Shown piece by piece: positions 8,837 to 9,352 of a stretch of 64,000 nt of DNA. The number at the start of each line of letters is the position of its first letter. Within the stretch, counting starts at the first letter, position 1. Origin of the DNA: a phage; NCBI GenBank assembly GCA_024674815.1, contig GCA_024674815.1_4104.1, one strand, 5' to 3'. The notes beneath the pieces are model-generated. The model had not been told where the DNA came from and ran no database searches. It worked only from the letters and a program-made list of their open reading frames with translations. The position numbers and the translations under genes were made by a program.

Positions 8837-9352
8837 TTAATAATTATTCATTTCATCTTTGATTTGTTCTTCAATTTCGTCGAACATATCAGTACTAGAT
8901 TCGTTCTTACTACTTACGTTCTGCATATCTTTAACGTACTGTGGACATTCAACATCAGTAAACTTATACCACGTAGGCTTCATCTGGAGCTTCTCAATCA
9001 AACGATCACGAGACATTTTAATCTCTGACTCCGATGGTACATAGTCATTACAAAACTCAGCAGGGAAGCCGCTAATGTCGTTTACTTCAGTGTTTTGAAT
9101 CTTCATACCACGACGCAGACATTCGTTGACAATATCAATATGACGCTTCTGTAAGTACAGTAACTTGTCGTAGAAAAATGTTACATGACCTGAACCTAAC
9201 AGATAAGTACTGTTAATTTTGAAATCACGTACACGCTTACGTGCTTGAACGTGTTTTTGTACAGCACCAAATACACGTGGGAGTTCACGATATTCAGCCA
9301 TCAGATGTTGGTCAGCAAGTTCTTTAACGTGTACTAAGTTAATGCGTGTCAT
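8837..9352 (-). CDS. denV: endonuclease V, pyrimidine-dimer DNA glycosylase/AP lyase
   Basis: N-terminal ~135 aa closely match recalled T4 endonuclease V (MTRINL...[21 protein letters not shown]...[10 protein letters not shown]...PTWYK); extra ~35-aa acidic C-terminus. Confidence 0.92.

Follow-up and report, generated by a model that had tools for sequence, protein, structure and literature searches.

In the phage DNA analysed here (GCA_024674815.1, contig GCA_024674815.1_4104.1), a stretch of 64,000 nucleotides that we refer to as a whole as the window, the open reading frame (ORF) denV encodes a T4-type pyrimidine-dimer DNA glycosylase whose chain runs on past the catalytic core into a C-terminal tail. 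This tail is almost certainly an optional but translated and selected addition, consisting of a disordered or flexible polar linker followed by an acidic amphipathic helix. The first-pass annotation of this DNA had described a DenV homolog with an acidic C-terminal extension, a description borne out by matches in PDB and Pfam and by the net charge of -6 over residues 139-171. The gene and the parts of its product are arranged as follows:

8837..9352, minus strand: denV coding sequence of a jumbo E. coli phage, 171 amino acids plus stop (stop codon 8837-8839), ATG start.
8945..9352, minus strand: catalytic core, residues 1-136, T4 endonuclease V fold, with T2, R3, R22, E23, R26, R117, K121 and W128-Y129-K130.
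8924..8944, minus strand: residues 137-143 (PQYVKDM), start of the short C-terminal helix; contains the mosaic junction.
8891..8923, minus strand: linker, residues 144-154, polar, fast-evolving and indel-prone, with the lowest model confidence.
8840..8890, minus strand: terminal motif, residues 155-171, a conserved acidic amphipathic helix.

Over residues 1-131, DenV aligns with the same positions of T4 endonuclease V (2END, 138 amino acids) at 63-68% identity (phmmer against PDB; E 1.8e-54, 187 bits). The close alignment to T4 that had been noted earlier is therefore real, although it ends at residue 131 rather than near residue 135. The protein also passes the family threshold of Pfam PF03013 Pyr_excise (55.8 bits, E 5.9e-15, cut-off 23), and PHROG 1183, “endonuclease V N-glycosylase UV repair enzyme,” matches residues 1-133 (E 1.2e-58). 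An AlphaFold2 (AF2) model, built from an 80-sequence alignment, has a mean predicted local distance difference test score (pLDDT) of 90.5, and its all-helical core superimposes on 2END in Foldseek with a root-mean-square deviation of 1.2 A over 133 columns (target-normalised TM 0.94, E 1.6e-16). In T4 endonuclease V, Thr2, with its N-terminal alpha-amino nucleophile, and Glu23 are catalytic, and Arg3, Arg22, Arg26, Arg117, Lys121 and Trp128-Tyr129 are essential. The window protein begins MTRINL, with Thr2 directly after the initiator Met, and carries E23 inside a YRELPR block, both invariant among the 80 homologs; R3, R22, R26 and R117 are likewise invariant, K121 is conserved in at least 90% of the alignment, and W128, Y129 and K130 are kept. 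The catalytic and DNA-binding residues of T4 endonuclease V named here are all found in the aligned sequence. By sequence, fold and these residues, the ORF is DenV, a member of the T4-type pyrimidine-dimer DNA glycosylase/apurinic-apyrimidinic lyase family, and the corresponding activity is predicted for it. The identical protein occurs in phages vB_EcoM_CRJP21 and E9.1, and gene 217 of phage 121Q encodes a product with 99.4% identity and the same length of 171 amino acids.

Compared with T4 endonuclease V (DenV, T4-PDG; 2END, 1VAS), the window protein has the same fold and catalytic residues, and in the core both are small, basic proteins. The T4 enzyme, however, ends at residue 138 (YYGKAIYA), whereas in the window DenV Y131 and Y132 are replaced by F and T, as in all RaK2-like homologs, and the chain continues through a helix, the linker and the 17-residue acidic helix; in this comparison the net charge goes from +5 for the core to -2 with the tail. 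Measured against the 138 residues of the T4 enzyme, residues 139-171 form a surplus of 33 amino acids with nine Asp/Glu and three Lys/Arg (net -6), and seven acidic residues and one basic residue fall within the last 17. Residues 1-138 taken alone have a net charge of +4 and a pI of 9.0, as against -2 and 6.2 for the whole protein. The PQYVKDM segment corresponds to a P-x-Y-Y-x-x-M/L segment found in all RaK2-like DenVs, including the tail-less ones of 144-147 amino acids. Since the segment is common to these tail-less jumbo-phage enzymes, the lineage-specific add-on comprises residues 144-171 (28 amino acids). An earlier estimate of about 35 residues of acidic tail thus comes close to the 33-residue extension but overstates the part that is specific to the tailed lineages.

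The tail-less RaK2-like DenVs (PBECO4, slurp01, RaK2, K64-1, GAP32 and CBB) have cores that are 66-96% identical to that of the window DenV and stop 1-4 residues past P-x-Y-Y-x-x-M/L, without linker or acidic helix. In PBECO4, denV occupies the same locus and has the same upstream promoter/stem-loop element as in the window. Tailed DenVs from further, independent assemblies, in turn, differ in length: 158 amino acids in P0003/P0004, 176 in P0008, 179 in P0009 and Xanthomonas phage XbC2, and 181 in P0025, in which the tail is divergent yet acidic. All of the motif-bearing long tails, and the P0025 tail as well, have a net charge of -4 to -8.

Within the tail, linker and terminal motif behave very differently. 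The linker is unalignable across lineages, including the long linkers of P0008 and XbC2, and its length ranges from 0 to about 20 residues while the motif is retained throughout. Residues 155-171 follow the consensus D-x-[FYL]-x-[DE]-[IV]-E-x-Q-I-K-[DE]-E-M-N-[NL]-[YE]. Seven tails were compared, from three lineages with cores 76-79% identical, and eight positions (D, E, Q, I, K, E, M, N) are the same in all of them; the chain ends in Y in most lineages and in E in P0008. F157, I160, I164 and M168 form a hydrophobic stripe (i, i+3, i+7, i+11), and the helical hydrophobic moment of 0.48 is matched by 0.2% of shuffled sequences. In the AF2 model of the window DenV, residues 138-169 form a single helix, with pLDDT of 73, 70 and 82 in successive blocks and 70-73 in the linker; in the model of P0009, a helix at 138-158 is followed by a break at 155-163 with pLDDT below 50 and a second helix at 164-177. 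Both models therefore have a helical end, with the linker as the weakest part.

These models bear on the possibility that the C-terminal helices pair as a short coiled coil, in which case a dimeric glycosylase could bridge DNA segments. The long helix 138-169 predicted for the window protein and a heptad-like hydrophobic spacing of 3-4-4-3 are consistent with such pairing, which we nevertheless consider very unlikely, given that there are only about two hydrophobic heptads, that the like charge of -6 disfavours homodimers, and that the polar, variable connection between core and motif is deleted outright in L044 and is broken and of low confidence in the P0009 model. T4 endonuclease V also acts as a monomer.

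The tail is found in frame in many independent sequences. In whole-protein tblastn searches, about 18 distinct phages match over the full length, and about 12 close relatives end at 144-145 amino acids; the in-frame tail is also present in independent metagenome contigs. A tail-only query of 32 amino acids gave 20 matches among 50,697 phage records (tblastn, E<=10), all of them denV 3′ ends, and in the same search the tail was not found as a separate ORF in any record. Within Asteriusvirus, the linker has undergone a 12-nt (4-amino-acid) deletion in ph0011 and a 39-nt (13-amino-acid) deletion in L044, the latter between two GATATG repeats, and both deletions keep the frame and leave the terminal motif whole. 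Overall, three in-frame linker indels were seen, each preserving the end of the tail. The first-pass annotation had raised the scenario of a separate small ORF fused to denV by a sequencing error, to which assembly errors and read-through may be added; some relatives whose sequences are of low quality or carry deletions (SD-2_S15, SD-15_S21) do have denV fused in frame to the downstream gene. Such an artefact has practically no chance of being the explanation here, as about 18 phages, sequenced independently, have the same or nearly the same 171-amino-acid ORF, XbC2, P0008, P0009 and P0003/P0004 have related tails, and tblastn finds the tail nowhere as an ORF of its own. The scenario is also excluded by the linker indels of 12 and 39 nt and the longer linkers, which are all in frame with the motif.

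Selection on the two parts of the tail can be read from seven 171-amino-acid Asteriusvirus alleles. By the Nei-Gojobori method, the ratio of nonsynonymous to synonymous differences per site (pN/pS) is 0.09 for the core (residues 1-138) and 1.14 for the linker (139-156), and the motif (157-171) has two substitutions in total, F157L and D166N. Between lineages, nucleotide identity is 0.76-0.78 in the motif and 0.74-0.78 in the core; the module is therefore as old as the lineage split, and its rate of change has been similar to that of the core. For the same reason, the idea that the tail moved horizontally from one lineage to another in recent times was rejected. Taken together, these comparisons indicate that the linker evolves neutrally and that divergence of the terminal helix has been about as slow as that of the catalytic core.

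In a neighbor-joining tree of the cores, long acidic tails appear in four separate clades of RaK2-like DenVs, each among tail-less relatives with 84-95% identical cores. The 121Q-type and PBECO4-type phages, which infect the same host, have 96% identical cores, with the tail present in the former and absent from the latter. In a DNA alignment of the window, 121Q and PBECO4, identity is about 95% over codons 1-136 and is followed by a clean replacement; identity to PBECO4 falls to 52% at codons 137-143. In the 121Q-type phages, the exchanged stretch comprises codons 137-171, a degenerate stem-loop/promoter copy and a 64-amino-acid membrane-protein ORF; in its place the PBECO4-type phages have only eight diverged codons (PEYYRSMI), and identity between the two types returns at the promoter of the next gene. 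The same junction bears other ends as well, such as the non-acidic extensions in P0013, P0015 and P0017. In two Asteriusvirus genomes propagated on Salmonella, SD-15_S21 (L063 501-1280) and SD-2_S15 (P0005), the DenV core runs in frame from about residue 136 into a downstream-gene homolog, giving proteins of 259 and 242 amino acids, respectively; the fusion partner is a homolog of the 119-amino-acid gene at window positions 8138..8497. These fusions reflect a deletion at this hot-spot junction or else faulty assembly.

The replaced segment is bordered by copies of a repeated element in the vicinity of denV:

9381..9413, minus strand: composite stem-loop and sigma-70-like promoter, PeSL-like, upstream of denV; TTGACT-18-TATAAT with an upstream TG, promoter at 9410..9381.
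About 9360-9366, minus strand: likely denV ribosome-binding site, GAGAGGA.
8806..8836, minus strand: degenerate stem-loop/promoter copy right after the denV stop (AAAGGAAAGGATTGACTTCGGTTACACAAAGG); includes the ribosome-binding site of the next ORF.
8604..8798, minus strand: 64-amino-acid predicted membrane ORF (121Q gene 218) with two predicted hydrophobic segments and no family match.
6694-6713, 8112-8131, 9394-9413, 13965-13984, 15050-15069, 16392-16411, 16575-16594 and 19818-19837, all minus strand: copies of the repeated element.

The element, GGGTTGACTTCGGTCAGCCC-T5-GCTATAAT, has eight copies in the window where none is expected. It is a terminator-like stem-loop whose stem holds the -35 box of a near-consensus sigma-70 promoter, and its copies lie between small variable ORFs. 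The same element flanks denV in the L044 and P0008 contigs and is also present in L042, and in the comparison above it borders the stretch by which 121Q-type and PBECO4-type phages differ. In T4-type phages, the promoter/terminator cassettes known as PeSL (promoter-early stem-loop) mediate modular shuffling (PMC2839356, PMC4122927), and the repeated element of the window resembles these cassettes and has their properties. Recombination at the codon 137 junction and at the flanking PeSL-like repeats has repeatedly removed or exchanged the tail module. The 64-amino-acid ORF is found only in 121Q-type phages, within the same replaced segment as the tail, and is absent from PBECO4-type phages. With no intact promoter or terminator separating it from denV, it is apparently transcribed together with that gene. 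A link between the tail and this membrane ORF was considered and rejected, since the gene downstream of denV is different in every tailed lineage, including L044, L042 and XbC2.

Such a plastic locus might simply have left behind a tolerated recombination remnant with no role in repair. The patchy distribution of the tail, which in four clades sits among tail-less relatives whose cores are 84-95% identical, the neutral evolution of the linker and the tolerance of the junction for other ends (the extensions in P0013, P0015 and P0017 and the fusions in SD-2_S15 and SD-15_S21) would all fit a neutral appendage. We regard it as improbable, however, because a tail of this kind would be expected to decay or be truncated, whereas the terminal 17 residues have persisted in the different lineages throughout the divergence of their cores, every linker indel is in frame with the motif preserved, and the amphipathic pattern of the helix is non-random.

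What the tail does is less certain. The first-pass annotation had suggested that it could modulate DNA binding or mediate an interaction; a neutral linker leading into a conserved acidic amphipathic helix is compatible with either role and makes both more precise. The reading that we tentatively favor, by analogy with single-stranded DNA-binding proteins (SSBs), is that a tethered acidic helix competes with DNA for the basic groove of the enzyme and so tunes its search. In the complex of T4 endonuclease V with DNA, the C-terminal W-Y-K segment lies at the DNA interface, so that the tail begins beside the basic groove. Tethered next to W-Y-K, the helix, with its net charge of -6, could reversibly fill the DNA-binding groove; its occupancy would lower the electrostatic affinity for undamaged DNA and thereby tune the salt-sensitive sliding search for dimers. 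Binding of damaged DNA would then displace the tail, and the freed helix could also act as a handle for a partner.

Such competition with DNA, together with the recruitment of partners, is known for the acidic C-termini of T4 gp32, E. coli SSB and T7 gp2.5. For T7 gp2.5, regulation of DNA binding by the acidic tail is documented (PMC2553585, PMC10359462). T4 endonuclease V, for its part, locates dimers through a salt-sensitive electrostatic scan of undamaged DNA (PMC13505299, citing Gruskin and Lloyd, 1986; Ganesan, 1986). The tails of the SSB type (T7 gp2.5, the T4 gp32 A-domain and E. coli SSB-Ct) share a layout of DNA-binding domain, flexible linker and acidic-hydrophobic end, and DenV may be compared with them in that a tail of net -6 sits on a core of net +4 and a variable linker (pN/pS as given above) leads into a motif with eight invariant positions. 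By contrast, there is no sequence homology between the DenV tail and the SSB tails, the DNA-binding domain is a glycosylase and not an OB fold, and the end is a 17-residue helix instead of a terminal D-F or I-P-F peptide.

Several observations weigh against self-competition. The conserved positions include the non-acidic residues Q163, I164, K165, M168 and N169 and the hydrophobic stripe, which suggests a specific interface, possibly that of a partner, and not a bulk polyanion effect. Neither AF2 model packs the helix on the core (coordinates not inspected), and the P0009 helix is unanchored, with pLDDT of 51-58. The tailed cores are not significantly more basic than the others (+5.25 vs. +3.4 to +3.8, with standard deviations of 1.6-1.9 and non-independent sequences), and charge compensation in the tailed cores was rejected for this reason. 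In addition, near-identical phages on the same host do without the tail, so its role must be dispensable, and only eight tailed sequences were available in the alignment.

Some of these observations would be better explained if the helix were a tethered short linear motif that recruits the glycosylase to a phage or host protein of replication, recombination or base excision repair (BER), with little effect on its own DNA binding. This docking role is doubtful in itself, although we rank it close behind the self-competition model and consider it nearly as likely. The sequence-specific conservation of non-acidic and hydrophobic positions, the significant amphipathic periodicity, the freedom of the linker to vary in length and the undocked position of the helix in the AF2 models all agree with it. 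The phage also encodes possible partners (SSB, UvsX, UvsY, UvsW, helicases, an RNase H-like exonuclease and a clamp loader), and its SSB ends in an unusual basic amphipathic segment. On the other hand, the motif is present in no other ORF of a 352-kb tail-bearing genome, which argues against a shared docking tag of the kind found in gp43, gp33 and gp55; no neighboring gene co-varies with the tail, the downstream gene being different in each tailed lineage; no candidate partner was identified; and the tail is dispensable in close relatives. A more specific version, in which the acidic helix docks DenV on the replication/recombination machinery of the phage, for example on its SSB, and couples dimer incision to forks, is more doubtful still. 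Bacterial and T4/T7 SSBs typically have acidic tail ends. The annotated SSB of these phages (121Q gene 6, L052 5379-6431, outside the window) has a Pro/Ala-rich linker and then a basic amphipathic end (...PEAPKEQLSASALVARLKQQGK).

Searches for the motif in other proteins were made with a tail hidden Markov model (HMM) built from seven tails and run against stop-to-stop ORFs. DenV is the sole match among 1308 ORFs of the window and 5158 ORFs of the complete tail-bearing genome TH47 (352 kb). The runner-up (E 0.17; range 0.04 to 0.17) lies in an internal loop of a small membrane protein, with MFDYVEKQIKE in the 104-amino-acid ORF of the 4114-5134 cluster described below, and is judged to be a chance match. 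The idea of a C-terminal tag shared by several phage proteins was therefore rejected, and readings modeled on clamp-binding peptides are weakened accordingly; no similar C-termini were found among the replication and recombination proteins of the phage that were inspected. A phmmer search of the 33-residue tail against 1.84 billion representative proteins returned no match, and no family in PHROGs, Pfam or NCBIfam covers the tail; a match to Pfam DUF6376 (E 0.006, below the cut-off) was dismissed. In degenerate DNA scans, with QIK[DE]EMN in IMG/VR and E-x-QIK[DE]EMN in metagenomes, the only DenV hits were the 121Q genome and the P0008 contig, and the other sequences hit were unrelated, with the exception of a near-match in T4-like portal proteins. 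On these searches, the tail motif is rare overall. The near-match is in portal proteins (Portal_T4, E 3e-180) in which EEDMKEIDEQIKEEMNNPQY stands right after the Pfam domain and agrees with the DenV motif at 12 of 16 positions with one gap; it occurs in the IMG/VR contigs L005, L006, L007, L016, L023, L031 and L035 (e.g., L006 647-2308) and is judged to be either chance or a convergent acidic helix.

In the clamp-binding peptides of T4 gp43, gp33 and gp55 and in PIP-box glycosylases such as UNG2, a flexible tether likewise carries a short C-terminal peptide of acidic and hydrophobic character, which brings the enzyme to the replication machinery. A DMFD string like that of the window DenV also occurs in the tail of the RB69 polymerase. 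This string is not conserved in the other tailed lineages of DenV (DEYE, DPYE, DMLN), and E-x-Q-I-K-[DE]-E-M-N has no counterpart in the clamp-binding peptides.

The first-pass annotation had also taken denV as confirmation of a T4-type lineage, a conclusion that the genome context does not sustain. Over its first 25 kb, the window shares 99.2% identity with Escherichia phage vB_EcoM_E9.1 and 97-98% with the Asteriusvirus phages 121Q, SP27, slurp01 and phAPEC6. By these identities the window belongs to Asteriusvirus, the 121Q/PBECO4-like members of the RaK2-like jumbo phages with genomes of about 350 kb, and not to a T-even phage. The phage does carry distant T4-like core genes, but these are far more diverged from T4 than denV is, as shown by the scores of the three products against their T4 counterparts:

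DenV vs. T4 endonuclease V: 187 bits, 131 amino acids aligned.
Terminase vs. T4 gp17: 146 bits, 335 amino acids aligned.
UvsX vs. T4 UvsX: 77 bits, 314 amino acids aligned.

Because denV is so much closer to T4 than the core genes are, it is not a lineage marker, and lateral exchange among enterobacterial phages seems likelier than descent as the source of its resemblance. According to a review of jumbo phages, some members of the RaK2-like group have a glycosylase of the T4 endonuclease V type; the review makes no mention of the extension (PMC7824862). No published description of the DenV extension was found in the literature searched; the tail-bearing proteins are already in public databases, where they are annotated simply as endonuclease V.

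Two further loci near denV were noted. A 373-amino-acid ORF (6722-7843, minus strand) consists of four tandem repeats of about 70-75 amino acids (...TEQFIEEAKKRRTDVDFDYSKVNYIN.KTK.TIIDPEFGEF...) followed by a distinct C-terminal domain, and in relatives the genes neighboring this ORF are annotated as “regulator of chromosome condensation,” “DNA condensation protein” or homing endonuclease. At 4114-5134 (minus strand), three small ORFs of 122, 104 and 112 amino acids have overlapping stop and start codons, and all three are multi-pass membrane-like.

Overall, the DenV tail is a modest variant of a well-known enzyme and not a new system; it leaves the knowledge of the enzyme family unchanged, and its value is incremental. 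T4 endonuclease V, which has been developed as a topical therapeutic, T4N5 (PMC13505299), is the textbook repair enzyme that slides electrostatically along DNA in search of lesions. The 121Q-type and PBECO4-type alleles, which are carried by near-isogenic phages and differ in little but the charge-reversing tethered helix, offer a natural experiment on the effect of charge and tethered competitors on target search, and equally on the coupling of a phage glycosylase to other machinery. If docking on the replication/recombination machinery of the phage were true, the helix would be a phage counterpart of the PCNA- and RPA-binding motifs of eukaryotic glycosylases, and DenV would be the first partner-directed T4-type pyrimidine-dimer glycosylase. 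Beyond the enzyme itself, the denV locus provides a case in which a protein C-terminus is exchanged as a module at a hyper-plastic, repeat-flanked site.

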